NCBI GenBank assembly: GCA_001776935.1
Contig: MFDN01000014.1
Span: 65,464 to 129,463, forward strand
From: Candidatus Daviesbacteria bacterium RIFCSPLOWO2_01_FULL_39_23
Lineage (GTDB): Bacteria; Patescibacteriota; Microgenomatia; Daviesbacterales; UBA10151
Reading direction: 5' to 3'
Length of the DNA stretch: 64,000 nucleotides
Shown here: positions 39,530-63,828 of the stretch, in pieces
How positions within the stretch are numbered: the stretch's first letter is position 1
Layout of the letters: each line of letters starts with the position of its first letter
Made by a program: the position numbers and the translations under genes
The notes under the pieces: model-generated
What the model was told of the DNA's origin: nothing
What the model saw: only the letters and a program-made list of their open reading frames with translations
Database searches by the model: none

Positions 39530-40704
39530 TAAAAGTTTCTTTCTATCTCTATCAGCCTATTATACTTCGCCAGCCTGACTTCCTGAGTCGGCGCTCCGCT
39601 TTTTAAACCATCTGCCTCCACACCATATGCCAGATCTGCAATAAAACTATCCATAGTTTCGCCTGACCTGTGGGAGATTATCACTTTCCAATTATAACTT
39701 TGCGCAAGCTTGATTGCCTCCAAAGTCTCTGTTACAGATCCAATCTGATTGGGCTTTATTATCACACCTGTTGCGGCTTTTTCTTTCTGAGCCTTATTTA
39801 TAAGATCCGGATTTGTCACGGTTAAATCATCTGCAATTATCCAAATCTTTTCTCCTAAATTTGCGACTATTTTAATAAAGCCGTCTTTATCATCTTCCGA
39901 AAAAGGATCTTCAATGGACAATAGGGGGTAGGAAGTAGCGAGTAGGTTGTAGTAAGACAATAAATCGTCACTGCTTTTAATTTTCCCCCTAAGATTATAT
40001 ATTCTGTTTTCAAAAAATGTAGAGGCAGCCACATCCAAAGCCAAACTGACTTCCGGACCGGTTGCGTTGCGGTTTAGAACCTGCAAACCCACCCTCGGAT
40101 CATCGCTTTTTATAGTTAATGCCCCTTCATCGCCAAGCCTAACCTCCCCAAAGTTTTTTTCAATATCTTCCTGCAGCTTTTCAAAACAATTTTTTGCATA
40201 CTCCAGGCCTTTGGCAGGGGAGGGGAATTTGGTTACTAAAATATACTCCTGAAAAGGCAGGCTGTCCTTGGCATGCAATCCTCCTCCTATTAAATTAAAG
40301 TAAAGATAGGGAAATTTCCGGGGGGTTTTACCCAGTATTTTTGATATTAATTGAAAGCACTGTAAATTCTCAGATTTTGCCAATAGCTTTGTGAAGGCAA
40401 TTGATAAAACTAAAATTAAATTTCCGCCTAAATTGGATTTTTCTTTTGTGCCGTCTGTGCTTATTAAGAAGCCATCAAACTCCCAAACTGTTGGAAAATC
40501 TTTATTTAAGATCTGGTTTTTGATAGTTTCAAATTTAGAAAGCACAAGGCTTGGCTCAAGGGTTGTAGTTTCAAATTTTCCTTTGCTTTTGCCGGCAGGC
40601 ACAGATGCAGATGCCTCAAAATCCCCGGATCTTAAAACAGCTTCCAGTGTATCCTTGTTTCTGGAATCTTTTACTATTCTGATGTTTATATCTGAAATTT
40701 TCAT
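39529..40704 (-). CDS. eno: Enolase (short, divergent)
   Basis: N-terminal DSRNKDTLEAVL...ASVPAGKSKGKFE; C-terminal IIADDLTVTNP, KPNQIGSVTETLEAIKLA, ISHRSGETMDSFIADLA, AKYNRLIEIE all align to canonical enolase blocks. Confidence 0.85.
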   Translation of the reverse strand: MKISDINIRIVKDSRNKDTLEAVLRSGDFEASASVPAGKSKGKFETTTLEPSLVLSKFETIKNQILNKDFPTVWEFDGFLISTDGTKEKSNLGGNLILVLSIAFTKLLAKSENLQCFQLISKILGKTPRKFPYLYFNLIGGGLHAKDSLPFQEYILVTKFPSPAKGLEYAKNCFEKLQEDIEKNFGEVRLGDEGALTIKSDDPRVGLQVLNRNATGPEVSLALDVAASTFFENRIYNLRGKIKSSDDLLSYYNLLATSYPLLSIEDPFSEDDKDGFIKIVANLGEKIWIIADDLTVTNPDLINKAQKEKAATGVIIKPNQIGSVTETLEAIKLAQSYNWKVIISHRSGETMDSFIADLAYGVEADGLKSGAPTQEVRLAKYNRLIEIERNF

Positions 40705-43061
40705 TCTTGTGAACGGATCGCCTGCATGGTGGAAATCACCGAGTCCGGATTAAGGGACATGCTTTCAATGCCAATGCTTACTAAAAATTTTGCAAAATCC
40801 GGATAATCAGAAGGCGCCTGCCCGCAGATTCCGATATATTTGCCTCTTTTTTTGCAGACTTTAACAACTTCACTTATCAGCTGTTTAACAGATTCATCAT
40901 TTTCATTGGCAATGCCTTTTACTTTTTCGTTTCCGTCCCGGTCAATCCCAAGCGCCAGCTGAGTTAAGTCATTTGACCCGATACTCATGCCGTCAAAAAT
41001 ATCTAAAAACTTATCAGCAAGAATTACATTAGCAGGAATTTCACACATCACATAGACTTTTAACCCATCATCTCTTTTAAGTCCATTTTGCTCCATAATC
41101 TTAATAACTTTTTCTCCCTCCTGCGGAGTCCTGCAAAAAGGAATCATAACAACTAAATTCTTAAGCCCCATTTCATTTCTCACATTTTTAACCGCCTCAA
41201 CTTCCAGTTTAAAAGCCGGCAAAAAAGCTTCATTGTAGTAGCGGGACGCGCCTCTCCAGCCGATCATCGGATTTTCCTCTGACGGTTCAAACAAATAACC
41301 CCCAAGCAAAGAGCGGTACTCATTAGTTTTAAAATCCGAAAACCGCAAAATCACCGGTTTTGGATAAAAAGCTGCAGCGATTTTTGCAATGCCGTAGGAT
41401 AACTTATCAATATAAAACTTCGTTTTGTTTTTATACCCTAGTGTTTTACGGTCCACAGCTTCTTTTACCGCTTTTGGAAGTTTGTCATAATTTATTAAAG
41501 ACAGCGGATGAATCCCGATATCAGAGGCGATTATAAATTCTTCCCTTGCAAGACCAACTCCACTGTTTGGCAGGAATGATTTTTCAAAGGCGGTTTCCGG
41601 TGTGGCAATGTTCATCATTATGTGAGTTTTCACCGGTCTGATATTGCGGATATCATGTTCTGTTACTTTAAATTTCAATTGTCCTTTAAAAACTATCCCT
41701 TCTTCGCCTGTACAATCCACAGTTATCATTTCGCCTTTTTTAATTTTAGATGTTGCATTTTTGCAGCCGACAATTGCGGGGATTCCCAGCTCACGGGAAA
41801 CTATGGCTGCATGAGAGGTTCTTCCGCCCTGATCAGTTACAATGGCAGAGGCAATTTTCATAATCGGTTCCCAATCAGGGTCTGTCATTTTGGTTATTAA
41901 CACCTCACCGGCTCCAAAGGTGGAAATATCTTTCGGATCAATGATAATTTTTGCTTTGCCGGTTGAGATTTTATTTCCAACTGATGCGCCTTTTACTATT
42001 TCCTGGCCGTTTTCCAGCCTGACATACTCTTTTATGACCGAGAAATTTCTTTCTGCATGAATGGTTTCCGGTCTAGCCTGCACAATGTACAATTTTCCGT
42101 CCAGTCCGTCTTTGGCCCACTCCGTATCCATCGGCGTCCACTTTTTACTAACCTTACTGTAATGCTCCTCAATTTGCATTCCCCAGCCGGCAAGTTCTTT
42201 GATTTCCTTATCAGAAAGCGTAAATGTTTGTTTTTCCTGTTTTGAGGTTTCAACAATACGGGTTGGCTTATCCTCGCCATAAATCATTTTCTCATCTTTC
42301 ACACCCAGCTTTTTTTCTATAATGGCAGAAGTTTGTTTAAAAACTAAAAATTCATCAGGCGTCACTTTTCCCTGCACTATCATCTCCCCCAAGCCCCATG
42401 AAGAATTTATCAAAACCAAGTCTTTAAAACCTGATTCCGTATCCAAAGTAAACATTACTCCGGAGCATGCCAAATCAGAACGGATCATTTTTTGCACACC
42501 CACAGAAAGATATACCTTAAGATGATCAAAACCTTTATCCTCCCTATATGAAATTGCCCGGGCAGTAAACAGAGAAGCCATCGCCTTTCTAATTGCTGCT
42601 AAGATATTATCCACACCCCTGATGTTTAAATAAGTCTCATGTTCGCCGGCAAAAGACGCTCCGGGTAAGTCTTCTGCTGTTGCAGAAGACCGCACCGCAA
42701 AACTTACACCAGTACCGTATCTTTTTTCGTAAATTTTATGAGCAGCTTTAATTTCTTCTTCAAGTTCTTTGGGGAAAGGAGTTTGTAAAAACTTATTTAT
42801 TATATTTTTGGAGATTTGAGCCAACCCTTCCAGGTGTCCTTTTACAAATTTGTCTATCTGCTCCTTAATATAACTTTCTAAACCTGTTTCTGATAAGAAA
42901 AATCTATACGCTGTAGCAGTTACCGCATAACCTGAGGGGACCAGAATTCCACTACCTGCTAAAGATCCTATCATCTCACCCAAAGAAGCATTTTTGCCTC
43001 CAACTTCGGTAACATCTTCTATGGAAATCTGCTCAAAGGGGATTATAAACTTACCGGCCAT
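40701..43061 (-). CDS. ppsA: Phosphoenolpyruvate synthase (PEP-utilising enzyme)
   Basis: N-terminal VGGKNASLGEM, phospho-His domain ITKMTDPDWEPIM...TDQGGRTSHAAIVSRELGIPAIVGC, C-terminal PEP/pyruvate TIM-barrel; ~785 aa from ATG at 43061. Confidence 0.85.
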   Translation of the reverse strand: MAGKFIIPFEQISIEDVTEVGGKNASLGEMIGSLAGSGILVPSGYAVTATAYRFFLSETGLESYIKEQIDKFVKGHLEGLAQISKNIINKFLQTPFPKELEEEIKAAHKIYEKRYGTGVSFAVRSSATAEDLPGASFAGEHETYLNIRGVDNILAAIRKAMASLFTARAISYREDKGFDHLKVYLSVGVQKMIRSDLACSGVMFTLDTESGFKDLVLINSSWGLGEMIVQGKVTPDEFLVFKQTSAIIEKKLGVKDEKMIYGEDKPTRIVETSKQEKQTFTLSDKEIKELAGWGMQIEEHYSKVSKKWTPMDTEWAKDGLDGKLYIVQARPETIHAERNFSVIKEYVRLENGQEIVKGASVGNKISTGKAKIIIDPKDISTFGAGEVLITKMTDPDWEPIMKIASAIVTDQGGRTSHAAIVSRELGIPAIVGCKNATSKIKKGEMITVDCTGEEGIVFKGQLKFKVTEHDIRNIRPVKTHIMMNIATPETAFEKSFLPNSGVGLAREEFIIASDIGIHPLSLINYDKLPKAVKEAVDRKTLGYKNKTKFYIDKLSYGIAKIAAAFYPKPVILRFSDFKTNEYRSLLGGYLFEPSEENPMIGWRGASRYYNEAFLPAFKLEVEAVKNVRNEMGLKNLVVMIPFCRTPQEGEKVIKIMEQNGLKRDDGLKVYVMCEIPANVILADKFLDIFDGMSIGSNDLTQLALGIDRDGNEKVKGIANENDESVKQLISEVVKVCKKRGKYIGICGQAPSDYPDFAKFLVSIGIESMSLNPDSVISTMQAIRSQE

Positions 43062-43092
43062 TAATTTATATTCTACTAAACAGCTGTGAAAA

Positions 43093-46000
43093 TCAATAAG
43101 ACATCTTTTCCTCTGCAAATAGTTCAGCCTGTCTTAATATATTTTCTGCAGCATAAGGGCGCAAACCTTCCGGATACCCGTACTGCCTTATGGTTCTTCT
43201 TATTATTAACCATAGATTGGATTTGGCGCTTACTTTAATTGGCCAATTTTCTACCGCATTGGCTTTTATGCGCGCTGTAATCAGTTTAGCCAATTCCTGA
43301 ATTTTTTCTACTCCCAGCTGTTCTCTTGCGTTCTTATTGATGGCAAGAATATCAAAATAAGCAAGCTCTTCTTCTGATAAACCTAAATTACTATATTTAA
43401 ACTGCTTACCGATTTTCTCTTTTGAATTTATTAAATCCGCTATGATTTTATCCACTTTCAAATTATACTCCCTGTGTTTTTGCAGGCCCTTTTTAAGGGT
43501 ATCTGACAAATCCGTTTCCGCTCTTTTTACTTTGATAAATTCTTCAATAATCTCGTTCTCAATTGAACGGTTCTGAAGCTTTTCTATCAGACTTTGTATT
43601 TTCCTTGCCAAAAACTCCGGAGATTCATCCTTCTTTTCTATTAAAGTAGCAAGCTCTTCAATAATTTCGTTGGTGATAAGATTATGCTCTTTGAGTTTTG
43701 GAATAATATCTTCATATATTTGGGACAATTCTTCATTTGATTTTTCATCAAATATAAACTTTAGAACACTCACTCCTTCTGACCCGCGAAGCTCTTTGGC
43801 AAACGAAGCCAACGAATCAACAGCCGGACCGGGCGCCAAAATCTTATCATTATATTTCCTTATAATATCCTCAAGAATTTCTGCCAATTTTTTGCCGCGG
43901 GTGAGATTTTTCTTAGCTTTTGCGCGCAGTGCATCTATAAGAATTTTTTTTAATAACTCAAAAGCGGTTTTTTCCCGCACCATACCTTTTGCTTCTCCTA
44001 AAAACTCGTCCGAGAGAAGTATTATGTCGGTACCTCTTATCCTGACATCTGTGTGTCCCCCATGCTGCGTTGTTTCCACTTCTCCTCCTATAGACTTATT
44101 TTGATACCATTTTAGTTCTATTTGCCGGAAATCTAACCCGGCAGCCTCTGTTGCATCCAAAACATCAGGAACCTCTTCATCTGCTATTTGCCTAATAACA
44201 GTTTCTTCTCCAATTTCCAAAATATCACTATCCTTGGGCTCAAATTTCAGCATTCTCATCTTAAGGGCCTGGAAAAATCTTAATTTACCTTTTATATCTA
44301 AGGCTTTAGGATGCGGGTAAGACATTACAAACCAGCCGGATAAAAGGTCAACTTCTTTTATAAACCTATTCTTGCCGTCTTTAAGGCCAAAAATATGCTC
44401 CTGCGCATCCAGCAGAATGTTAAGCTTTTGTGATTCTGCGGAAAAATACGGCTGGTAATCAAACGGGTCAAACATTGAATGGACAATTTGAAATTTTTCT
44501 ATCATTTTTAAAACTGCTTCTCCCAAGTCATCTACCGGATCTCCTTCGCCACCGCTTGCAATATATTCCTGTTGAGCTTTCTTGAATTGGGATAAAAGAC
44601 CAATATAATCAACAATTAACCCGCCTGGTTTATCTTTAAAAATCTGATTAACCCGTGCTGTGATTTGCATAAGTTTATGTCCGTGCATAGGTTTATCAAT
44701 ATATAAAGTATGCAGGGCAAGAGCATCAAAACAAGTCAGCCAAACATCGCAAACAATCACTATTTTTAAACTGTCGCCCGGATCATTAAGACGCTCACCC
44801 AATTTCTTTCTTTCCTCCAGGGAGTAAATTGAACTTAAAACAGCCTTAATTGCACCCTTATTTAAATCTTCATCATGCCAGGATGGACGAAGTTTGATAA
44901 TTTCATCATAAAGTCTCAAAGCAAGCGGCGGATGCAAAGCAACTATCATGCCTTTGCCTTCAAAAAAGCGGGTGCGGTTTTCAAAATGAGCCACAATATC
45001 AGCCGCCGCCTGCCGGACTCTGTCAGTATTTCCCAGGGCTTTCTCAAGCTGTTCTAAAGCGTTTTTAACCTTTTGAGAAGGAGCATTTTGCCCCTCCATC
45101 AATGATTCAACATTTTCATCATATTTAAGCAACTCTTCCTGTTTTAGGTGAAATTTCGGAAGTCCTGAGTGATAATAGACCCTGACGGTAGTACCATCTT
45201 CAACCGATCTTGCAACATCATAAATATCGATATAGCTCCCAAAAACTTTTAAGGTTAAATAGTCTTCTTTTTCAGCCGGTGTACCTGTAAATCCAATAAA
45301 ACAGGCATTCGGCAAAGCAGGGCGGATAAATTTATCAAAAACCTGTGCGCTTTTTTTTATTTCTTCCGCAATAACAATAATATTATTCCTTACCGATAAA
45401 ATGCCGTGATTTTTTTCAGAAAAATTATCTATCGGGCTAAAAATAATGCCGCCGCCTAAAGCAGCAAGAAGTCCTGTTAAATGCGCCTGGTTTTGCGCAA
45501 CTTTAACTTCCTGATGTAGGAGTTGATTACAGGAAGTTAAAGTTTCAAGCAGATGGAAATCCGGATCACCCGGATCAGGAATAACCAGGATTGTGGGCTT
45601 ATTTAAGAATAGGGAAACTTTACCGATATAAAACACTATGGAATAAGATTTACCGCTGCCCTGGGTATGCCATACTAAACCTGCTTTTTTGTTATCCATA
45701 AACCGACGGTTGGAAGAAAACTGCTCACTTGTTGACTCAACTGCTTTATTAACGCCGTTATACTGATGATAAAAAGCTACTTTTTTAGTTGATTTTTCAA
45801 AGACAATAAAGTGCTTGATTAAGTCCAGTAAAACTTCTCTATTTAGCATCTCGCAGATCATTGTCTCAAGCGAAGAAACAGACAAATTTTGACGCCTGTA
45901 TCCATGTCTGGATTTCCAAGCTAAGAATCTCGAGTAAGTAGATGTTATCGTTCCTGCTCTTGCATCTTTCCCGTCAGATATAACAAGAAGACTATTATAG

Positions 46001-46551
46001 TAAAAAATTGAGGGTATAGTCTTTTTGAAATCATGCATTCTGCTAAAGGTACACAAAAAAGCCGCCTCGCCTCCCGGACTGCCAAGTTCTATCACAATAA
46101 GAGGCAGCCCGTTAATAAAGAGAATAATGTTTACTCTTTTCTTATTATGTTTCTCAAATACGCTAAACTGGTTAGTAACAATAAATTCGTTATTTTCAGG
46201 ATTGCCAAAATCCACAATTTGCAAATTTCCAAAGCCAGGCATCTCAATACCGTTTGTTAGAATCTTATGAAAGGCTTCATTAATCCCTTCTGTCTGCAGA
46301 TTAAAAATTTCTTTAGCGGCTTTAACTTTCACTTCCTCAGGAACGCTTGGGTTTAAACGGTCTATTGCTATATGAAGTCTGTTTTTAAGTATTACTTCTT
46401 CTAAGTTTTCCCTTTCAAACTCAGCATCATCAGGCGACAGGTAACTAAATCCCTGAATTTTTAAAAGTTCCACAAGGTTTTTTTCTTCTTCTGATTCAAA
46501 AATTGCCGGCATAAAATATTGGCAGTTTTCAGGGTAGCCCAAATAGATCAA
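43093..46551 (-). CDS. hsdR: Solitary type I restriction enzyme HsdR-like helicase-nuclease homologue (apparently degenerate catalytic motifs)
   Basis: HsdR N-terminal block (FSYLSPDDAEFERENLEEVILKNRLHIAIDRLNP), nuclease block NIILFINGLPLIVIELGS, SF2 motif I WHTQGSGKSYS, motif III GFTGTP, C-terminal DUF3387-like region with YFDILA and QYGYPEG. No hsdM/hsdS within the window. Confidence 0.65.
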   Translation of the reverse strand: MIYLGYPENCQYFMPAIFESEEEKNLVELLKIQGFSYLSPDDAEFERENLEEVILKNRLHIAIDRLNPSVPEEVKVKAAKEIFNLQTEGINEAFHKILTNGIEMPGFGNLQIVDFGNPENNEFIVTNQFSVFEKHNKKRVNIILFINGLPLIVIELGSPGGEAAFLCTFSRMHDFKKTIPSIFYYNSLLVISDGKDARAGTITSTYSRFLAWKSRHGYRRQNLSVSSLETMICEMLNREVLLDLIKHFIVFEKSTKKVAFYHQYNGVNKAVESTSEQFSSNRRFMDNKKAGLVWHTQGSGKSYSIVFYIGKVSLFLNKPTILVIPDPGDPDFHLLETLTSCNQLLHQEVKVAQNQAHLTGLLAALGGGIIFSPIDNFSEKNHGILSVRNNIIVIAEEIKKSAQVFDKFIRPALPNACFIGFTGTPAEKEDYLTLKVFGSYIDIYDVARSVEDGTTVRVYYHSGLPKFHLKQEELLKYDENVESLMEGQNAPSQKVKNALEQLEKALGNTDRVRQAAADIVAHFENRTRFFEGKGMIVALHPPLALRLYDEIIKLRPSWHDEDLNKGAIKAVLSSIYSLEERKKLGERLNDPGDSLKIVIVCDVWLTCFDALALHTLYIDKPMHGHKLMQITARVNQIFKDKPGGLIVDYIGLLSQFKKAQQEYIASGGEGDPVDDLGEAVLKMIEKFQIVHSMFDPFDYQPYFSAESQKLNILLDAQEHIFGLKDGKNRFIKEVDLLSGWFVMSYPHPKALDIKGKLRFFQALKMRMLKFEPKDSDILEIGEETVIRQIADEEVPDVLDATEAAGLDFRQIELKWYQNKSIGGEVETTQHGGHTDVRIRGTDIILLSDEFLGEAKGMVREKTAFELLKKILIDALRAKAKKNLTRGKKLAEILEDIIRKYNDKILAPGPAVDSLASFAKELRGSEGVSVLKFIFDEKSNEELSQIYEDIIPKLKEHNLITNEIIEELATLIEKKDESPEFLARKIQSLIEKLQNRSIENEIIEEFIKVKRAETDLSDTLKKGLQKHREYNLKVDKIIADLINSKEKIGKQFKYSNLGLSEEELAYFDILAINKNAREQLGVEKIQELAKLITARIKANAVENWPIKVSAKSNLWLIIRRTIRQYGYPEGLRPYAAENILRQAELFAEEKMSY

Positions 46552-56711: not shown

Positions 56712-57155
56712 ACGAAAGCAGCAGTAACCGCTGACATCCCGTCTCATCCCTTTTATTACGGCGAATTTGAGCAACAGATATATGAGCTAAAAACCAAAGC
56801 CAAGATTGATTATCGTTTAATAGATGAGGTTTTGTCTCTGACCACAAACATTTATCAAACTTATATGGAAGCCCCTGATTTTCTAAAGAGACATTACCTG
56901 AGGTTATTCTTTGACAAGATATACGTAAAGGATAAAAAGCTATGGAAAGTGGTTGAAAATCCAGTGTTTTCAGTACTAAGAAAACAGGAGAAACTTATAA
57001 TAGACGGGCACTGGTTGGCGGATATAGATGCTATTCGAACTTTTTGGGCAGCTGCCCAAAAAAGATACTTAAAAAAAGATGAGAATTGGGTACAAAAACC
57101 TTGGGACAAGGAAGTGTTAGATTGGCTAGTCACATTAATAACAATAACAGCTTAA
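56712..57155 (+). pseudogene. Possible C-terminal remnant of a recombinase-like gene (open frame without ATG start; TTG at 56832)
   Basis: Frame is open from the stop at 56709; YYGEFEQQIYELK...LKRHYLRLFFDKIYV resembles C-terminal regions (DUF4368-like) of large serine recombinases, from memory only. Confidence 0.2.
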
Positions 57156-57445
57156 TTTCCAGCAATTAATGCTTCCTTTTTTGCTTTAGTCCACTGTTTT
57201 AATTGATATTCTCTCCTCATAGCCTCAATTCTAGTAAGATATTGTTCTGAATAAACTAACTTAAACGAATCAAAGTATCTAATATATTTAGCAGATTTGC
57301 CATTTTTACTTTTATGTTCATTTAACCTTTTTTCTAAATTATTTGTCTGGCCGATATAAAGGGTGTTTGAGGAAGTACGAAGAATGTAAACATAGTAGCA
57401 ATCCTTTGACTCCCTTTGGTCACTCAGGGCATTCAACCTAATCAT
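57152..57445 (-). CDS. GIY-YIG nuclease-domain small protein, copy B
   Basis: YYVYILRTSSNTLYIGQTNNLEKRLNEHKSKNGKSAKY identical over ~35 residues to copy A; 5' ~170 nt ~90% identical at DNA level, 3' part diverged. Confidence 0.75.
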   Translation of the reverse strand: MIRLNALSDQRESKDCYYVYILRTSSNTLYIGQTNNLEKRLNEHKSKNGKSAKYIRYFDSFKLVYSEQYLTRIEAMRREYQLKQWTKAKKEALIAGN

Positions 57446-57916: not shown

Positions 57917-57959
57917 CTAGATACAAAAAGACCCTCACAAGGAGGGTTTTTGTATCTAG
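57917..57959. terminator. Strong bidirectional hairpin between coiled-coil gene and tRNA-Gln
   Basis: ctagatacaaaaagaccctc-acaag-gagggtttttgtatctag, ~18 bp stem with internal A/T run. Confidence 0.55.
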
Positions 57960-58030
57960 TTGCGGGACATGGATTCGAACCATGATAGATAGCTCCAAAG
58001 GCTATCGTCCTACCATTAGACGATCCCGCA
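57960..58030 (-). tRNA. tRNA-Gln (anticodon TTG)
   Basis: Minus strand: TGCGGGA-TC-GTCT-AATGGTA-GGAC-G-ATAGC-CTTTGGA-GCTAT-CTAT-CATGG-TTCGAAT-CCATG-TCCCGCA-A; U1-A72 as in bacterial tRNA-Gln. Confidence 0.8.
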
Positions 58031-58155
58031 GCGCCTGCAGGTATTATACCTCGTAGCATGCCAAGAATCGAGATCTAAGCACTATCTTGACTCTTATCAA
58101 AGAGTATGCCAACAATGGTATTAAGGGATCTTTCCTAAAGGAGGTGATTAACAGA

Positions 58156-58347
58156 ATGGATACAAAACAATTAATAGCTTGGATTTTGGTGATCGGTGCT
58201 GTTAACTGGGGTTTAGTCGGACTTGTAAACATGAATATTGTTGAGACAATCTTTGGTGCATCAATAATCACCAAAATTGTTTACATAATCATTGGTTTGG
58301 CCGGTGTGTATAAAGCTTACATGATGGTTGGCGGAAAGAAAAAATAG
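58156..58347 (+). CDS. DUF378-family small membrane protein
   Basis: RBS AAGGAGGTGA; IAWILVIGAVNWGLVGL...IVYIIIGLAGVY matches DUF378 (NWGLiG). Confidence 0.65.
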   Translation: MDTKQLIAWILVIGAVNWGLVGLVNMNIVETIFGASIITKIVYIIIGLAGVYKAYMMVGGKKK

Positions 58348-58449
58348 TTTCCTGCCAAATTTAGGTAATTATTTCCGCAGGAAATAATCCTACGGTTTAT
58401 TAAAATCCGGCTGCTTTAATGCGGCCGGATTTTTTTGGATAAAATATAT

Positions 58450-61400
58450 TTACAAATACCTCAAATACCGACCAATTGTTTCTACTAAAGCAGCATAGCC
58501 ATTAGGTTTTAGTACCTGAATAAAGTTATCATGCCTATTAAATTTAATATTTAAGCCTGCATCAAATATCTTATATCTTTTAGCAAATTCTTCGTAGGGT
58601 AACACTCCTCCTTGTCCGTCATGAGATGCCTGCCAAAAACTTTGAAAGGCATCAAGCATATTTCCGTTATGAAGCAAGATCCAGTTCTCAACACCAATTC
58701 CTCCCATTCCTCCATCTTCAAGCTTTTTGTATGCATGCCCTGCTTTAAGAATCTTTTTGGTCAGCACAATATTTGCAAGAGCATCTAAATATGCCCCGTC
58801 ACCGTGAGTTGCCCTAATTGACTCAAGCTTTTGCGCAATAGAATCACTGGAAGCAAAAATTCCCTCATCAGAACGCTTGCCGATTCCAATATCAATATCT
58901 AGAATTTCACCTTCAATTATTTGTGATCCCTTACCCCGGACTTGAATATAATCAGTCTCTGTATGAGAAGCATCTTGTTGCAGTTTAAGTACGCCTTTAA
59001 CAATTTCGGCAATTTCACCTAGACGCTTACTGTTGTTCGGATCCAATTGAAGTGACATATCAAAATCATAATCTCCGGGAACATTACTGCCTCTTGCAGT
59101 TGATCCTGTATCAACAAGTTCGGCGCCATAGATGCTTGTATCAAACTCCCCACGCAACGCCACTCCGTTTGCATCAAGTACGTCTCCTATTCTTTTCCTG
59201 ATTTCGTTTGATAATCCTACAACTTTCTTTCTGTCTGAAGAGATCTCCTGTGCTAATTTATCCAGTGCTCCTCTGGTAGAATCTACAACCTCTCTGCTGT
59301 TCGGGAACGGATATAGAGCTTCATCAATACCGACTCTTCTTACGGCAGATGGGCTTTCGCTATATTCACTTACCCCATCAAAAGTTTTTCTATATTCATC
59401 AAACTGTTTCGGAGTAAAAATAATATTTCCGTTTCTATCAGCAACCGGGATATAGACGCCATTTTGTGCAATTGTCATAAACAGGTCATCAAACTTTCCG
59501 GCGGAGGAAGAATCCTTTTGCAAAACCATCGCATCTATTTCTGTTGAAGCAAATCCTGTACGTATGCCAAAATGTCTACCTCCAAGGGATAAAAATGATT
59601 CGTATTGATTTGCTCCTGTACCAAACTGTCCTCTATCGCGAACCAATAAATAAATATCCCCATAAGCTTTAGCTAAAGACGCATTTAAAGCACTGGTTAC
59701 ACCATTTGAAAGATCTCCATCAAGTATTAAACTGGTATCAGAATCATAAGGTGTTAAGTCTGAACCCGCAGAAACGCCGAGATATTCCCTTGCCACTGAA
59801 CCACGTTCTAAAATCTTCCCGATATTTATTGAATTTAAACCCTTAAATCTATCTCCGGCCTTTAAAGCAATCTTCCCCGCACCGGACTCTGCAAATTTTC
59901 TGTTTCTTGCATCTGCTTCTGCTTTCGATTTTGCCATCGCTTTTAAAACATCTTCAATATTGGTAAATCCTAAAGGCTTTAGAAACATTTCAGAAATCCT
60001 ATCTGTAAGTTTTTGGTCAGGACGGACATGAAAATTTCTTTTTAAAGCTTCTGCCCTTTTTTCTAAACTAAATTGAGAAGTAGTAGGGGATGAGTCTATA
60101 TGTTTCGCCCTTCGCCTGCTTTCAATAGTCCTGCCAAATAGTGATGAAGTATACAGCATATCCATCTTTTCGAAAAAGTGTTCAAGCTGCAACTTTTCTC
60201 TTTCACTAAGCGCGCCAACTCCTTCATCCTCCATTTTGGTAATTACACTTTCCCCATCCCTGATTGTTTGTAAATAATTACGCAATTGGGGATTGCCGGA
60301 ATGAATGTTAATAGAAAGAAGATCCCTATAAATTATTTCCCTGCGCTCCCTGGGGGTTGCTGATCTTAATACCGGGCTTAAGTTAGATCTTGATGATAAA
60401 TCCATTTCAAGAATAGATTTTCCGGAAGTTCCGGGATTATCATAAATAGTCTCAAAAACCCTATAGATTTTACCTACCAAAGGTAAATTATTTTTTTCAA
60501 ACACCCCAATAATTTCCTCCAGAGCTGCTTGTGGATTTTCAAGTTTCCAAAGCTGTCCAATAAGTTCCTTCTCAATTCTTTTTATTTCTGCTGAAGGTGA
60601 ATTTCTAATTCTATCTATTATTTCCTTTGCAACTCTATATTTTTCTGCTTTGTCAGGAGCAACGCGCGGAAAACCAGCTTCATTAATAACCTCCATTCTT
60701 AAATCTCCAGGAAGACTTTTCCAGATAGAAAGCACTGATCTCTCGAAATCATCATATTGTGATAATGCTTCATCAGAAAGATATGTCGCAAGAGCATCCG
60801 GATATTTTTGTCTAATTATTTCATCTGTGAAAACCCTTGTCGGTTTCCCATTTTTAATAAAATCCTTATAGCCGGGCGCAAGAGTGATTATTTTAATTAA
60901 CTTATCGCTTAATACAGTTATGTCTGCAAAATGCATAAGAGCTGATACTGTTTTGTATCTATCGAGAAGATCAGCGCTTAAGACGGGGAAGTGTTGTTCG
61001 GAAGCAGATAAAATCTGAAGTTGTTGGGGGAAACTTATCCAAATTTCTAGTGTTCTGCGTTCGTCTCCAAAAAATTCAAGCATATTATTTTTAAGAATCA
61101 TGGATAACGCACTAGGTCTTTTAAGTTCTATTAAGAATTTTGCGAGTTCCGCGTTAGGCTGACCTTCAGTAAACAGAGAACGGACATCACCGCTGTATTG
61201 TCCGAGGGCAGAAAATAGTTCTCGTGTTGGCCATTCATTTGCAGGGTAATCTCTAGGAGAAAAATCAGGAGAATTAAACAAATTTGCTAAATTTTTAACT
61301 CTTTTTACATCTTTTATTGTCAGATTCGGTGCTTTTATCCCGCTTCGCCACCTCTGACCAATTAATTCAGAAATACCATCCTGAACATCACGAGGAAGCA

Positions 61401-63342
61401 AAAGAACGCTTTTAAGCCATTCGTTCATTTTGTCTGGAGGAACTATTTGTCTAATACTATAGCCCATAAGAGGCATACTGTTAACACTGGCTATCCATTT
61501 TGCGTCTTTAAAATTATCAGTCGAAAATGGAATTCCTGCTTCCCGAAGAAGCAAAATAGTAGGTATATAATTGATAAATTCACCCAAACGGGACATATCC
61601 ACACTAGCCACATCCCTTTCTTCACTTGAACATTGCCTTCTGGAACCCTCTATTATTCTTTTTGTCATCCCAGGATCCAATAAATCAATGAGATCTTTTG
61701 CCTTATATAACTGAACCAATACAGATTGACTTGGATAATTTATATGTGAATATTCTCCGTGATCAAATTGGTCTAACCGATATGTAAAATAATCCTGGGG
61801 TTGTAAAATAATTTCTTCTTTTTGTAAATTCTGGACAAATTTTAAAAAATCCGGACTTAGTAATATCTGTCTTCTTTCGTCGCTAGACATCAAACTTTTA
61901 ATTTCTTCAACCCTGGTCCTTACACTTTCATCATAATCCTGATTTTCTATACCAAGTTTACCAAATATTAGGCTATTTAGGACAATTAGATCCTGACGAT
62001 CTTCATATAATTCGCTTACTTGCTTTGGCGAAACAGGGCTTCCTTTCATCAGCCTAAGAATTTGTGCAAATTCCAATTTATCCGGATCAGCTAAAATTGC
62101 CTGAACAGATGGATCTGCTACCAAATTCGATAAATCCTGATTAATTTCAGCCTGTGTCTGGTTTAAATAATTAAAGTGGTCATCATTAGAATCCGGTATA
62201 TCCAAGCTGATTCCTGATTGAATTAACGCTGTAAGAGGAGCAATCAAACCATCTTTATCTAAAGAATCTAAAGTATCAAATACGGTCGTTTTCCTTGAAA
62301 AACAACGATCGTAATACCCCCTTCTCAAAGCAACTGATAAAAATTGAAGTTTGTCTTGATTACCGATTAGAGTTTCATAAGCAGGAAGATCTTCTATTTC
62401 GACTTCCGGAAAAACATGGAAGAATGTTTTAAAGACGCGGGCAAGGATTCCGACTTTATCAAAAAATTCGGGAGGATAATTGGGGATATTTCCCGTTTCA
62501 GCAAGGCTTATTAATGTGTCAACTTGCGTGATATCACTACCGTATGATGTAACTCGCCAAGGATTATGCGGAACTTGGGACATTCCTTGTATTAAGGGTA
62601 ACAACTCCTGCGCATTTGGGGTTTTCAACAGCCTCATAATTGTGGTTATATCAGTTTTTCCAGTATAACTGCGCGGGTGAACAAATGAATCGAATAAATT
62701 TACATTAGGCTCAAGAGCTTTAATGAAAGGCATAGGGTCAACTCTTGTCTCAAGCAGTGCCTTTATTACAGGTATACTATCGATACCCAAATTAAGCCGG
62801 TTTGAACCACTCTTAAGATCAGTTTCCAGGCATACCACAAGACGCCTAAATTCTTCTATTTTAGAAACTCCCTGTCTGCGTGCTTCAAGAGCTAGTACCT
62901 GATGGCGGAGCATATCTTTAAGTTTAAATATTCTTACAGAATCTTCTTTAGGTATTGAGGGTTTATTTTCTTTTACTAATTCTTTAAATATGCTAAATGG
63001 ATCGGAACCGCCTATTTCTTTTGTTCTTACTTCAGCAAGAGTTTTTTGGTATTCAATTTCCGGATCAAGTGGAATTTGAGGATTTATTTCCGGTATGGTT
63101 TGACTTTTATCCACACTTACAACAACAATTGAATCATCTAATTTTTGATCCGGAGCTTCAACAATATCCGATAAAGCCGCATCAGGGTCAGGATGCGGTC
63201 TGGTAATTCTACCCCTTATTTTTTCAATCACGCGTTTTGCCGCTTCTGCAATTTTTCTGGTGGGACCGGATTTATTTTCTGCGGAAGATACTTTTTCAGA
63301 TGCAGGTACTATTGACTGATCAGGTGATGCTAATCCCGGCAT
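58450..63342 (-). CDS. Giant (1630 aa) mostly alpha-helical protein with C-terminal Pol-beta-superfamily nucleotidyltransferase-like domain
   Basis: Last ~250 aa contain LVDTGSTARGSNVPGDYDFDMSL (hG[GS]x9-13 DxD NTase signature) and a downstream third acidic motif EILDIDIGIG; rest has no recognisable domain; no signal peptide. Confidence 0.55.
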   Translation of the reverse strand: MPGLASPDQSIVPASEKVSSAENKSGPTRKIAEAAKRVIEKIRGRITRPHPDPDAALSDIVEAPDQKLDDSIVVVSVDKSQTIPEINPQIPLDPEIEYQKTLAEVRTKEIGGSDPFSIFKELVKENKPSIPKEDSVRIFKLKDMLRHQVLALEARRQGVSKIEEFRRLVVCLETDLKSGSNRLNLGIDSIPVIKALLETRVDPMPFIKALEPNVNLFDSFVHPRSYTGKTDITTIMRLLKTPNAQELLPLIQGMSQVPHNPWRVTSYGSDITQVDTLISLAETGNIPNYPPEFFDKVGILARVFKTFFHVFPEVEIEDLPAYETLIGNQDKLQFLSVALRRGYYDRCFSRKTTVFDTLDSLDKDGLIAPLTALIQSGISLDIPDSNDDHFNYLNQTQAEINQDLSNLVADPSVQAILADPDKLEFAQILRLMKGSPVSPKQVSELYEDRQDLIVLNSLIFGKLGIENQDYDESVRTRVEEIKSLMSSDERRQILLSPDFLKFVQNLQKEEIILQPQDYFTYRLDQFDHGEYSHINYPSQSVLVQLYKAKDLIDLLDPGMTKRIIEGSRRQCSSEERDVASVDMSRLGEFINYIPTILLLREAGIPFSTDNFKDAKWIASVNSMPLMGYSIRQIVPPDKMNEWLKSVLLLPRDVQDGISELIGQRWRSGIKAPNLTIKDVKRVKNLANLFNSPDFSPRDYPANEWPTRELFSALGQYSGDVRSLFTEGQPNAELAKFLIELKRPSALSMILKNNMLEFFGDERRTLEIWISFPQQLQILSASEQHFPVLSADLLDRYKTVSALMHFADITVLSDKLIKIITLAPGYKDFIKNGKPTRVFTDEIIRQKYPDALATYLSDEALSQYDDFERSVLSIWKSLPGDLRMEVINEAGFPRVAPDKAEKYRVAKEIIDRIRNSPSAEIKRIEKELIGQLWKLENPQAALEEIIGVFEKNNLPLVGKIYRVFETIYDNPGTSGKSILEMDLSSRSNLSPVLRSATPRERREIIYRDLLSINIHSGNPQLRNYLQTIRDGESVITKMEDEGVGALSEREKLQLEHFFEKMDMLYTSSLFGRTIESRRRAKHIDSSPTTSQFSLEKRAEALKRNFHVRPDQKLTDRISEMFLKPLGFTNIEDVLKAMAKSKAEADARNRKFAESGAGKIALKAGDRFKGLNSINIGKILERGSVAREYLGVSAGSDLTPYDSDTSLILDGDLSNGVTSALNASLAKAYGDIYLLVRDRGQFGTGANQYESFLSLGGRHFGIRTGFASTEIDAMVLQKDSSSAGKFDDLFMTIAQNGVYIPVADRNGNIIFTPKQFDEYRKTFDGVSEYSESPSAVRRVGIDEALYPFPNSREVVDSTRGALDKLAQEISSDRKKVVGLSNEIRKRIGDVLDANGVALRGEFDTSIYGAELVDTGSTARGSNVPGDYDFDMSLQLDPNNSKRLGEIAEIVKGVLKLQQDASHTETDYIQVRGKGSQIIEGEILDIDIGIGKRSDEGIFASSDSIAQKLESIRATHGDGAYLDALANIVLTKKILKAGHAYKKLEDGGMGGIGVENWILLHNGNMLDAFQSFWQASHDGQGGVLPYEEFAKRYKIFDAGLNIKFNRHDNFIQVLKPNGYAALVETIGRYLRYL

Positions 63343-63345
63343 ATT

Positions 63346-63687
63346 TTAATGGCTTGGTTCGTTTGCTTCCTTCAAAATCTTTGTTGCCTCATTTATTTTA
63401 CCTGACTTAATAAGCATTTGTGCGTGTTCAGTAACAATCTTTGTAATTTCTTCTTCGTGATCTTTTAAAACCGGCGCTATAGCCGCTGTTAGCTCTTGAA
63501 ACTCATCATCAAGAGTTGGGGCAATTTTGTATATTTGTTCAAGAGTTAAAGGAGGGTGAAGTTTATCCAAAACCATCCTGGCGATTGCCTTTGCCCGATC
63601 AATATCCATTTGCCCGTTAGTCAATTTTTCCTCTATAATTTTGAGTATGTCTAATTCAATCTTTTTTCTATATTCTTCGGCATTCAT
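63346..63687 (-). CDS. Small acidic alpha-helical protein translationally coupled to the giant ORF
   Basis: 113 aa from ATG at 63687; stop 3 nt before the giant ORF start codon. Confidence 0.45.
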   Translation of the reverse strand: MNAEEYRKKIELDILKIIEEKLTNGQMDIDRAKAIARMVLDKLHPPLTLEQIYKIAPTLDDEFQELTAAIAPVLKDHEEEITKIVTEHAQMLIKSGKINEATKILKEANEPSH

Positions 63688-63775: not shown

Positions 63776-63828
63776 GTTTGATTTGTGAGCGGGTCGCACT
63801 TTGGGCGAACCTCGCTCAAAAATCAAAG
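63776..63828. repeat. GC-rich long hairpin upstream of the small/giant gene pair
   Basis: gtttgatttgtgagcgggtcgc...gcgaacctcgctcaaaaatcaaag near-perfect inverted repeat; followed at ~63836 by gagcgggagacgca shared with the 24375 repeat region. Confidence 0.45.

Follow-up and report, generated by a model that had tools for sequence, protein, structure and literature searches.

The contig from Candidatus Daviesbacteria bacterium RIFCSPLOWO2_01_FULL_39_23 encodes a 1630 amino acid protein whose C-terminus is, as judged from predicted structures, a Pol-beta-type nucleotidyltransferase (NTase) closest to the CCA-adding-enzyme-like members, preceded by a domain with the ADP-ribosyltransferase (ART) fold. 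The pairing of these two modelled domains in one protein is absent from curated libraries, and we know of no report of their joint occurrence. The protein starts with a short leader and lies behind a small acidic gene. Elsewhere this adaptor and this leader accompany unrelated enzymes, so that in the present clade the ART/NTase module probably serves as a cargo within a polymorphic system of the effector type. We tentatively propose, with confidence somewhat short of even, a two-gene cassette comprising a leader-specific adaptor and a polymorphic cargo with a dual nucleic-acid-end module, the functions being those that we infer for the two products.

The window, i.e., the whole stretch of 64,000 nucleotides that was analysed, has a GC fraction of 0.34-0.43 across its length. 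The large reading frame is uninterrupted over 1630 amino acids from its ATG, the stop being included in the coordinates given in Table 1, and its translation contains both GSTARGSNVPGDYDFD and ILDIDIG. The partner frame lies upstream on the same minus strand and ends at 63346; its ATG at 63687 yields 113 amino acids and an alternative TTG at 63819 yields 157, of which the former is the supported length because homologues start at the equivalent Met. The junction consists of the stop TAA, AAT and ATG, a gap of 3 nucleotides. An independent ENA scaffold (L093) carries the identical 1630-residue frame and the 113-residue gene with the same gap, and the frame is therefore not split elsewhere. The preliminary description of this locus, an open 4.9-kb frame tightly coupled across 3 nucleotides to a 113 amino acid acidic partner, is borne out on both scaffolds; it had named a frameshift or split in an independent assembly as grounds for doubt, and none was seen. 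Directly past the stop codon of the giant gene is a candidate terminator hairpin with one stem mismatch, found by eye; a consensus scan for promoters and terminators gave nothing above shuffled background and did not call it. No same-strand gene follows the giant gene in the window or in a second locus (L001), and unrelated genes follow it in two others (L005 and L089). Since the 1630 amino acid protein has neither a hydrophobic stretch of membrane-span length nor a signal peptide, a membrane or Sec-secreted localisation was ruled out.

Table 1. Features of the two-gene locus and their positions in the window.
Feature	Positions	Strand	Basis
Partner ('adaptor') gene, 113 aa, acidic	63346..63687	-	ORF list; 3-nt gap; pI 5.2
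Modular protein of 1630 aa, entire ORF with its stop	58450..63342	-	Identical ORF on independent scaffold
N-terminal leader, aa 1 to ~75	63118..63342	-	Aligns with N-termini of all partner-coupled proteins
Clade-specific N-terminal region, aa ~90-889	60676..63075	-	Common to only ~13 close relatives
Family-conserved all-helical domain (predicted), aa 890-1150	59893..60675	-	AF2 model 2, pLDDT 88.5
ADP-ribosyltransferase-fold domain (predicted), aa ~1151-1335	59338..59892	-	AF2 model and structural matches
Linker and long connecting helix, aa ~1336-1394	59161..59337	-	Model 1 helix
Pol-beta NTase catalytic core (predicted), aa ~1395-1500	58843..59160	-	G1413-S1414, R1417, D1426, D1428, D1482/D1484
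PAP/OAS1-type helical lobe ('neck'), aa ~1501-1630	58453..58842	-	hhalign and conservation
Possible terminator hairpin	58401..58428	-	By eye; CCGGCCGC-ATTAAA-GCAGCCGG, then ATTTTA

The leader is rich in Pro, Lys and Glu and ends in the motif E..I..RI...[DN]PD.AL.DI. The clade-specific region behind it has no Pfam match and recurs in two proteins (P0008 and P0009) attached to another C-terminal half. In the helical domain P954 (147/147), D1007 (149/149) and K958 (145/148) are conserved in the family alignment; a fold search with its model returned no informative match. The helical character that had been ascribed to the N-terminal region is supported, by this model, for residues 890-1150 only. 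The long helix that connects the two C-terminal domains spans residues 310-352 of model 1, i.e., amino acids 1349-1391.

The NTase had been described as the only recognisable feature of the protein, which is wrong at the level of structure because the ART-fold domain precedes it. The model of this domain (pLDDT 88.5) has the split beta-sheet of the ART fold, and in it a dozen polar positions reach 96% conservation or more. Its nearest structural matches are the nucleic-acid-directed Tpt1/KptA and DarT, and the protein-modifying toxins OspC3, CteC, LT, Scabin and CARDS are also among the matches. The alignment to Tpt1 covers the NAD lobe only (~107 residues). When hhalign was run against the single sequences of KptA and the CCA-adding enzyme discussed below, it returned short, low-probability motif stretches, which we use as pointers to residues and not as evidence of homology. 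One of these, of only 25 columns (E 0.035), aligns the beta1-alpha1 signature with 'LYHGT...' of KptA and sets K1167 opposite the first triad His; by sequence, therefore, Lys1167 would occupy the position where ARTs have His or Arg. E1268-x-D1270, which precedes a strand, is a tentative positional counterpart of [QE]-x-E. In contrast to the Tpt1/KptA RNA 2'-phosphotransferases, the protein lacks the N-terminal winged-helix RNA lobe and the Arg-His-Arg-Arg tetrad, apparently carries Lys where their first triad residue is His, and matches neither PF01885 nor any other Pfam or PDB sequence. Pfam gave nothing for this domain in 30 family members even at E<=10, and a profile search of PDB sequences likewise found no match. 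DarT DNA ADP-ribosyltransferase differs in having a DarG macrodomain partner, which is absent here.

The C-terminal NTase claimed in the preliminary description is genuine. Its model has a pLDDT of ~90, and its catalytic and NTP-binding residues are conserved in 163-165 of 165 homologues. The hG[GS] motif (G1413-S1414, 163/163) is followed within 9-13 residues by D-x-D (D1426 and D1428, both 164/164), and the predicted structure shows an alpha/beta core fold in which an adjacent strand bears the third carboxylate; neither of the two weaknesses foreseen, unconserved acidic residues or a missing Pol-beta-like core, has appeared. The neck contains K1529, Y1538, a G-rich loop, E1552 and D1594-x-G-x-N1598. 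In hhalign K1529, Y1538 and E1552, each conserved in 165/165, pair with K152, Y161 and E176 of the class-I (archaeal) CCA-adding enzyme of A. fulgidus (AfCCA; PDB 1r89/4x4n). As in class-I CCA enzymes there is a head and a neck with the NTP-binding Lys and Tyr. Unlike AfCCA, the protein has these two parts only: it lacks the body and tail, which bind tRNA, its chain ending ~30 residues past the neck, and the NTase sits at the end of a 1630-residue bacterial protein beside an ART fold. The comparison aligned 218 of 436 residues, and the protein scored 13 bits with the TIGR03671 family HMM, whose cutoff is 281. tRNA maturation in Patescibacteria employs class-II CCA enzymes (bioRxiv 10.64898/2026.05.29.728689). 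The non-canonical poly(A) and terminal uridylyl transferases Cid1, GLD-2, TUT4/7 and URT1, like the CD-NTases/OAS, score below CCA enzymes and have no sequence-level match, and the accessory domains typical of these families are missing here. The PAP/OAS1-type lobe and the absence of a HEPN partner distinguish the domain from MNT toxins, which consist of a small NTase core alone with HEPN, and no structural similarity to the adenylyltransferase domains of GlnE/DrrA was found.

An exhaustive profile search showed that residues ~890-1630 define a large unannotated family, with no fewer than 1065 clusters when members are grouped at 50% identity. A first, word-indexed search had returned a tiny family of 9 proteins, which we reject as a sensitivity artefact because the exhaustive search gave 1065 clusters. 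Nearly all members are 1200-3000 amino acids long, with hypervariable N-terminal regions and the ART+NTase module, which is under strong purifying selection, at the extreme C-terminus; the MAFFT alignment of full-length relatives comprised 39 proteins. The hosts are Patescibacteria broadly and some gut MAGs labelled Bacilli, and the spread is patchy, with 141 matches among 185,579 species genomes in a single-pattern search. A phage origin was rejected, there being no relatives in 2.9 M viral contigs. Annotation by sequence alone (Pfam, NCBIfam, PHROGs, PADLOC, and PDB by phmmer and profiles) gave nothing significant, and no curated family covers the 1630 amino acid protein, in agreement with the earlier statement that no described family is known to combine a long helical N-terminal region with a C-terminal NTase. 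Most members are without the leader, the partner or conserved neighbours. Across 83 loci of the giant gene no conserved neighbours were found, the apparent clusters being antisense ORFs and an ABC-F ATPase (11 loci), and a jackhmmer search for the partner over 80 loci of giant-gene relatives found none.

The partner itself is not specific to the giant-gene clade, as partner-centred searches revealed. Its homologues form 364 clusters, the best 120 of which are 65-77% identical, and at ~38 loci it lies between -8 and +12 nucleotides upstream of variable leader-bearing ORFs. These partner-coupled proteins have the leader in common and unrelated C-termini, i.e., the conserved N-terminal segment and variable C-termini of polymorphic systems; the cargos include NUDIX, PP2C-FHA, a zeta-toxin-like kinase and many of unassigned type. 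At one locus (L128) partner, leader and cargo are fused in frame; a ParB-like 'DGRHR' motif noticed by eye in that cargo was not confirmed by Pfam. Among the giants, a leader HMM matches only the partner-bearing proteins P0001-P0006. The two-gene unit is one case of a wider cassette marked by the partner and the 75-residue leader rather than by the NTase, and the occurrence of this pair before many unrelated enzymes suggests an undescribed cargo-targeting cassette. Of the chaperone, immunity and regulator roles suggested for the partner, a chaperone-like one fits best; immunity is unlikely because the partner keeps its 65-77% identity from one cargo to an entirely different one. Neither leader nor partner has a recognised secretion or trafficking domain in Pfam, NCBIfam or PADLOC, no linked secretion apparatus or known signal was found at the 1630-residue locus, and T4SS genes adjoin just one related cassette (L095).

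Cassettes of an adaptor or chaperone with an effector are known from the T6SS (Eag/Tap), the T7SS (Lap-LXG) and the T3SS (a chaperone with an N-terminal chaperone-binding domain). The present cassette resembles them in its small acidic helper upstream, conserved N-terminal segment and swappable C-terminal enzymes, and in that some partner-leader loci have a third, cargo-specific gene which co-varies with cargo class. It differs in that neither the helper nor the N-terminal domain is homologous to theirs, in that it is found in Patescibacteria, and in that no secretion system or immunity gene lies at the locus.

In the proposed cassette, the product of gene 1 most likely binds the ~75-residue leader, as suggested by co-occurrence and the one gene fusion, and may be a targeting/export adaptor-chaperone or a holding factor. 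The product of gene 2 would consist of the leader, the clade-specific region and a ~740-residue C-terminal module with two catalytic-looking sites. In the NTase, D1426, D1428 and D1484 would hold two Mg2+ ions and G1413-S1414, R1417, K1529 and Y1538 the NTP triphosphate, for addition of a nucleotide to a 3'-OH, most likely that of an RNA end. The ART-fold domain may bind NAD+ or a related nucleotide and act on the same substrate, either by modifying or removing its terminal phosphate or base or by positioning it for the NTase. We regard as rather unlikely the more specific idea that partner and leader form an unrecognised export or targeting route in this patescibacterial clade, delivering, among other cargos, a dual ART-fold and CCA-like NTase which rewrites RNA ends. 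Against the proposed cassette stand the missing tRNA-holding body and tail of CCA enzymes, the lack of a known secretion apparatus or signal linked to the locus, and the absence of an immunity-like gene behind the ART/NTase giants; moreover, most family members do without leader and partner, and purifying selection suits a housekeeping role at least as well.

Such a role would be cytoplasmic repair or maturation of tRNA or rRNA ends, in which the ART-like domain, like Tpt1, clears or marks a terminal phosphate while the NTase rebuilds the 3' end, with the partner a mere regulator or assembly factor and no export. In structure, both domains come closest to enzymes that act on RNA ends (PMC3925840, PMC9503650), and the family, broad and strongly conserved, consists mostly of single genes and is not carried by phages; the missing immunity gene also agrees with this. 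We nevertheless consider it unlikely, given the patchy distribution, the hypervariable N-termini, the missing RNA-binding lobe of Tpt1 and body and tail domains of CCA enzymes, and a leader and partner that are the same as those of zeta-toxin-like, NUDIX and PP2C cargos. The preliminary description, whose interpretation as a whole is partly supported, had offered a nucleotide second-messenger synthase, an AMPylating effector or a toxin-like NTase. An effector that modifies proteins, its NTase AMPylating or NMPylating targets which the ART domain ADP-ribosylates, would accord with the presence of such toxins in both folds, with the toxins matched by the ART-fold model and with a cassette logic resembling that of polymorphic toxins; we consider it quite improbable.

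Decidedly improbable is a second-messenger or oligonucleotide synthase of the CD-NTase/OAS type in defence or signalling, with the ART-like domain as sensor or effector: this type scores below CCA and TUTase-type enzymes, no CD-NTase profile matched, the size and variable N-terminus are unlike those of known CD-NTases, whose accessory domains are missing, and neither CBASS-type effectors, Cap genes nor other conserved neighbours are present, PADLOC giving nothing significant. A type II toxin-antitoxin-like pair, in which the small protein directly inhibits the enzyme, could be read into the translationally coupled, acidic upstream gene, and NTase, ART, zeta-toxin and RelA/SpoT-type enzymes are known toxin classes. 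It is nonetheless very improbable: the partner remains 65-77% identical whatever the cargo, tracking the leader and no enzymatic domain, and so lacks a type II antitoxin's specificity for its toxin domain; ~150 of the enzyme's relatives occur without such a partner; and cargos of up to 1740 amino acids are atypical in size for toxins. It was natural to assume that the small gene supplied the NTase with immunity or an antitoxin, an assumption which is now corrected.

Patescibacteria form a large part of bacterial diversity and live in attachment to other cells. The majority of their large proteins lack annotation, and, to our knowledge, little is understood about their action on their hosts. 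Here a family of giant proteins with over 1000 clusters has a predicted core that joins two nucleotide-using folds which individually repair or modify nucleic-acid ends. If this is true, the ART+NTase module would be a new class of bifunctional nucleic-acid-end-modifying enzyme. The adaptor and the 75-residue leader provide a simple, searchable signature of swappable enzymes, such as one would expect if effectors are delivered, and this signature makes the cargo and delivery route of Patescibacteria directly testable. On the rather unlikely reading of an export or targeting route, these episymbionts would deliver interchangeable enzymes to a partner cell or a dedicated site within the cell.

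The ORF call, the 3-nt junction between the genes (TAA-AAT-ATG from partner stop to giant start) and an independent ENA metagenome scaffold (L093), which carries the identical 1630 amino acid ORF and 113 amino acid gene at equal spacing, bear out the preliminary description of a two-gene unit with an intact giant ORF. An alternative TTG start would make the partner 157 amino acids long; since all homologs start at the Met equivalent to 63687, we assign it 113. The homologous giants P0002-P0006 are likewise unsplit, with 52-58% identity to the giant across 95-100% of its length, as is P0007 (62% identity across 49%). One family member (L006:3487-8248) is broken into ORFs of 56, 1114 and 415 amino acids by a frameshift or a genuine split, the last junction being a 2-nt gap with a different frame. 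The giant is acidic overall (pI 5.5; partner 5.2), and neither a transmembrane segment nor a signal peptide was found in it. The window contains six tRNA genes, and its DUF378 gene converges on a putative hairpin (~58401-58428) that also lies 3' of the giant ORF.

Coordinates of the gene pair and of other genes in the window
Feature	Position	Strand	Remark
Giant ORF, 1630 aa	58450-63342	minus	uninterrupted; ORF call
Partner ORF	start Met at 63687, stop 63346-63348	minus	upstream of giant ORF
tRNA-Gln	57959-58030	minus	immediately downstream of giant ORF
DUF378 membrane-protein gene	58087-58347	plus	immediately downstream of giant ORF
Pyruvate phosphate dikinase	40701-43118		
Type I restriction R subunit	43093-46551		
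UPF0182 membrane protein, 929 aa	53766-56555		
GIY-YIG nuclease	57152-57445		

The nucleotidyltransferase (NTase) region of the giant has no significant match in curated sequence libraries, the sole pointer being a 13-bit match of an archaeal CCA-enzyme model at residues 1404-1473; P0020, a short standalone relative, matches PF01909 (E 9.6e-4). An AlphaFold2 model of residues 1040-1630, built from 18 sequences, reached a pLDDT of 76.5 overall and ~90 across the last 240 residues. Its structural matches include Pol lambda, Pol beta and RelA/SpoT, and neither GlnE/DrrA nor MNT occurs among the top 60. Within a family set of 165 members, the putative active-site residues are conserved as follows: G1413, S1414 and R1417 in 163/163, D1426 and D1428 in 164/164, D1484 in 164/165, and K1529, Y1538 and E1552 in 165/165. 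Both tests preset for refuting the C-terminal NTase were run and, because the catalytic residues are conserved and the predicted fold is of the Pol-beta type, the claim survived; the enzyme is very probably active. As modeled, it is of the bilobed class-I CCA/PAP/TUTase type. hhalign against AfCCA (AfCCA sequence 100% identical to PDB 1r89) aligned IVLTKKILKAGHAYKK-LEDGGMGGIGVENWIL to 33 AfCCA letters, the use of one sequence as template keeping the probability low; K1529, Y1538 and E1552 fall opposite K152, Y161 and E176, of which K152 and Y161 touch the NTP triphosphate in AfCCA structures. Compared with class-I CCA enzymes, the giant has the same head/neck type but ends directly after the neck, lacking the body and tail domains by which those enzymes hold tRNA (PMC3925840), and so falls outside the CCA-adding enzymes proper. 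CCA addition in Patescibacteria is carried out by class-II CCA enzymes (bioRxiv 10.64898/2026.05.29.728689).

Local phmmer analysis revealed that the whole stretch of residues ~890-1630, not the NTase alone, is common to ~148 of 150 representatives. A second model (residues 890-1345, 39 sequences; pLDDT 88.5, pTM 0.87) places an alpha/beta domain after a helical one. For the alpha/beta domain, PARPs, LT, CARDS, Scabin and CteC appear further down the ranking of one structural comparison. In an independent comparison, the Foldseek top ranks were yeast Tpt1 (probability 0.99, target TM 0.58) and DarT1 (0.84), with E values of at least 0.07 that alone are not significant. Sequence-level searches gave no link from this domain to any ART family. 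A weak hhalign alignment with E. coli KptA covers the beta1-alpha1 element only (GDRFKGLNSINIGKILERGSVAREY over 25 KptA letters) and sets K1167 at the first triad His position, where two family members have His. Near-invariant polar residues are R1146, D1164, K1167, E1186, D1195, T1197, P1198, D1200, D1202, R1237, Q1239, H1257, R1261 and E1268. We regard the ART fold as well supported, and NAD+ use and a catalytic triad as candidate features. Tpt1/KptA removes RNA 2'-phosphates in an NAD+-dependent step of RNA repair (PMC9503650), and DarT ADP-ribosylates DNA (per PDB entry titles); by these activities, both conserved domains resemble nucleic-acid end/base enzymes.

An exhaustive profile search, clustered at 50% identity, gave 1065 clusters at E <= 1e-3 and 677 at <= 1e-30. 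Nearly all members are 1200-3000 amino acids long with the ART+NTase module at the extreme C-terminus. Scanning one genome per species yielded 141 relatives; those in Patescibacteria fall in Saccharibacteria, Parcubacteria groups and Magasanik-, Morani-, Uhr-, Collier-, Roizman-, Peri- and Gracilibacteria. Gut MAGs labelled Bacilli, Erysipelotrichaceae or Clostridium also contain relatives, at 27-32% identity, and many family records are labelled Gammaproteobacteria, Micavibrio or Bacilli. None were found in 2.9 million viral contigs, no neighbor gene is conserved among 83 giant-gene loci, and Pfam recognized no domain in four of the largest members (2041-3069 aa) or in the homologs P0009, P0021 and P0073. 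P0008 and P0009 (loci L091 and L004; ~1555 aa) match the giant across residues ~90-700; their C-terminal half (~850 aa) is wholly different and unannotated, they have no partner gene, and their N-termini look by eye like a degenerate leader that the leader HMM does not detect. Two contigs of one MAG (L033, L051) carry one module copy each, and therefore some genomes have two paralogs. In L005 (616-2840 and 11301-13865), a P0006 homolog lies amid a serine recombinase, a LAGLIDADG-like ORF, an HTH protein and a D5-type primase, which suggests an integrated mobile element.

Partner homologs precede P0004 (72% identity), P0005 (~65%) and P0006 (44%); none lies upstream of P0007 or P0008/P0009, or at 80 other family loci. 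That the partner is clade-specific was overturned by a partner profile search, which returned 364 clusters, the best 120 at 65-77% identity to the window protein. Based upon context look-ups and a metagenome scan (45 loci), an ORF of widely differing length (152 to 1740 amino acids) nearly always comes directly after it, at -8 to +12 nt. All of these downstream proteins possess an N-terminal leader of ~75 amino acids, rich in Pro, Lys and Glu with the C-terminal motif E..I..RI...[DN]PD.AL.DI, beyond which they are unrelated in sequence; among them, the ART+NTase module occurs in the window clade only. The identified cargo domains are NUDT9_N+NUDIX (with an adjacent RelA/SpoT gene), PP2C+FHA and a zeta-toxin-like kinase, and 15 of 20 cargos have no Pfam match. 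The leader HMM matches exactly the partner-bearing giants (P0001-P0006), with no match in P0007-P0009, 150 representatives or 80 genome loci. The partner thus tracks the leader and not the enzyme, which argues against an NTase-specific immunity or antitoxin role and favors a leader-binding adaptor or chaperone; a leader-specific adaptor is the probable identity. The logic is comparable, by analogy only, to T3SS chaperones, T6SS Eag/Tap adaptors and T7SS Lap-LXG pairs.

Several cassettes have further features. In L128 (4170-6785) partner, leader and a ~750-aa cargo share one frame ('...KLKVLIMAVPG...'), either because the genes fused naturally or because a stop codon disappeared; a terminal ParB-like 'DGRHR' was seen by eye, without Pfam confirmation. 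A third gene co-varies with cargo class in some: a DUF5663 protein is common to L094 and L110, and another protein, with an HD_4 domain in L114, to L114 and L119; the ART+NTase giants have no comparable third gene downstream. On a Daviesbacteria-type contig (L095:1510-12732), genes for an 841-aa RelA_SpoT protein and for HD_4 come after a NUDT9_N+NUDIX cassette, which adjoins opposite-strand T4SS-like genes (TrbL, TrbC pilin, TraC, TraG, PrgI). One 894-kb contig holds a cassette with a 1019-aa unknown cargo (L094) and, ~230 kb off, a leaderless, partnerless ART+NTase giant (L013), so the two systems can coexist independently. At the start of the giant's helical domain (window 60508-60597, aa 916-945), EIKRIEKELIGQLWKLENPQAALEEII weakly echoes the leader motif E..I..RI...NPD.AL.DIA, and the leader HMM has a secondary match there in several homologs.

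The analysis establishes the gene structure, the two folds, conservation of the putative active-site residues in each, the modular build of the giant and the co-occurrence of partner with leader. Neither fold is new in kind, nor is the logic of an adaptor with polymorphic cargo. For the ART+class-I-CCA-like module, the giant Patescibacteria family bearing it and the partner/leader cassette, however, the literature searched appears to hold no description, nor do Pfam, NCBIfam and PADLOC. The main rival to our composite explanation is an enzyme that acts solely in the cytoplasm, in RNA repair or maturation, for which strong purifying selection and the many leaderless relatives speak; export of the giant as an effector is rather unlikely. 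The composite explanation itself, an adaptor with a cargo carrying a nucleic-acid-end module, is tentative, and a nucleic-acid end is a possible substrate that we propose with equal caution. Under this explanation the NTase would add nucleotides to an RNA 3' end via two-metal catalysis, and the ART-like domain would bind NAD+ or a related nucleotide and act on the same substrate. The partner would bind the leader, and the cassette would serve targeting or export.
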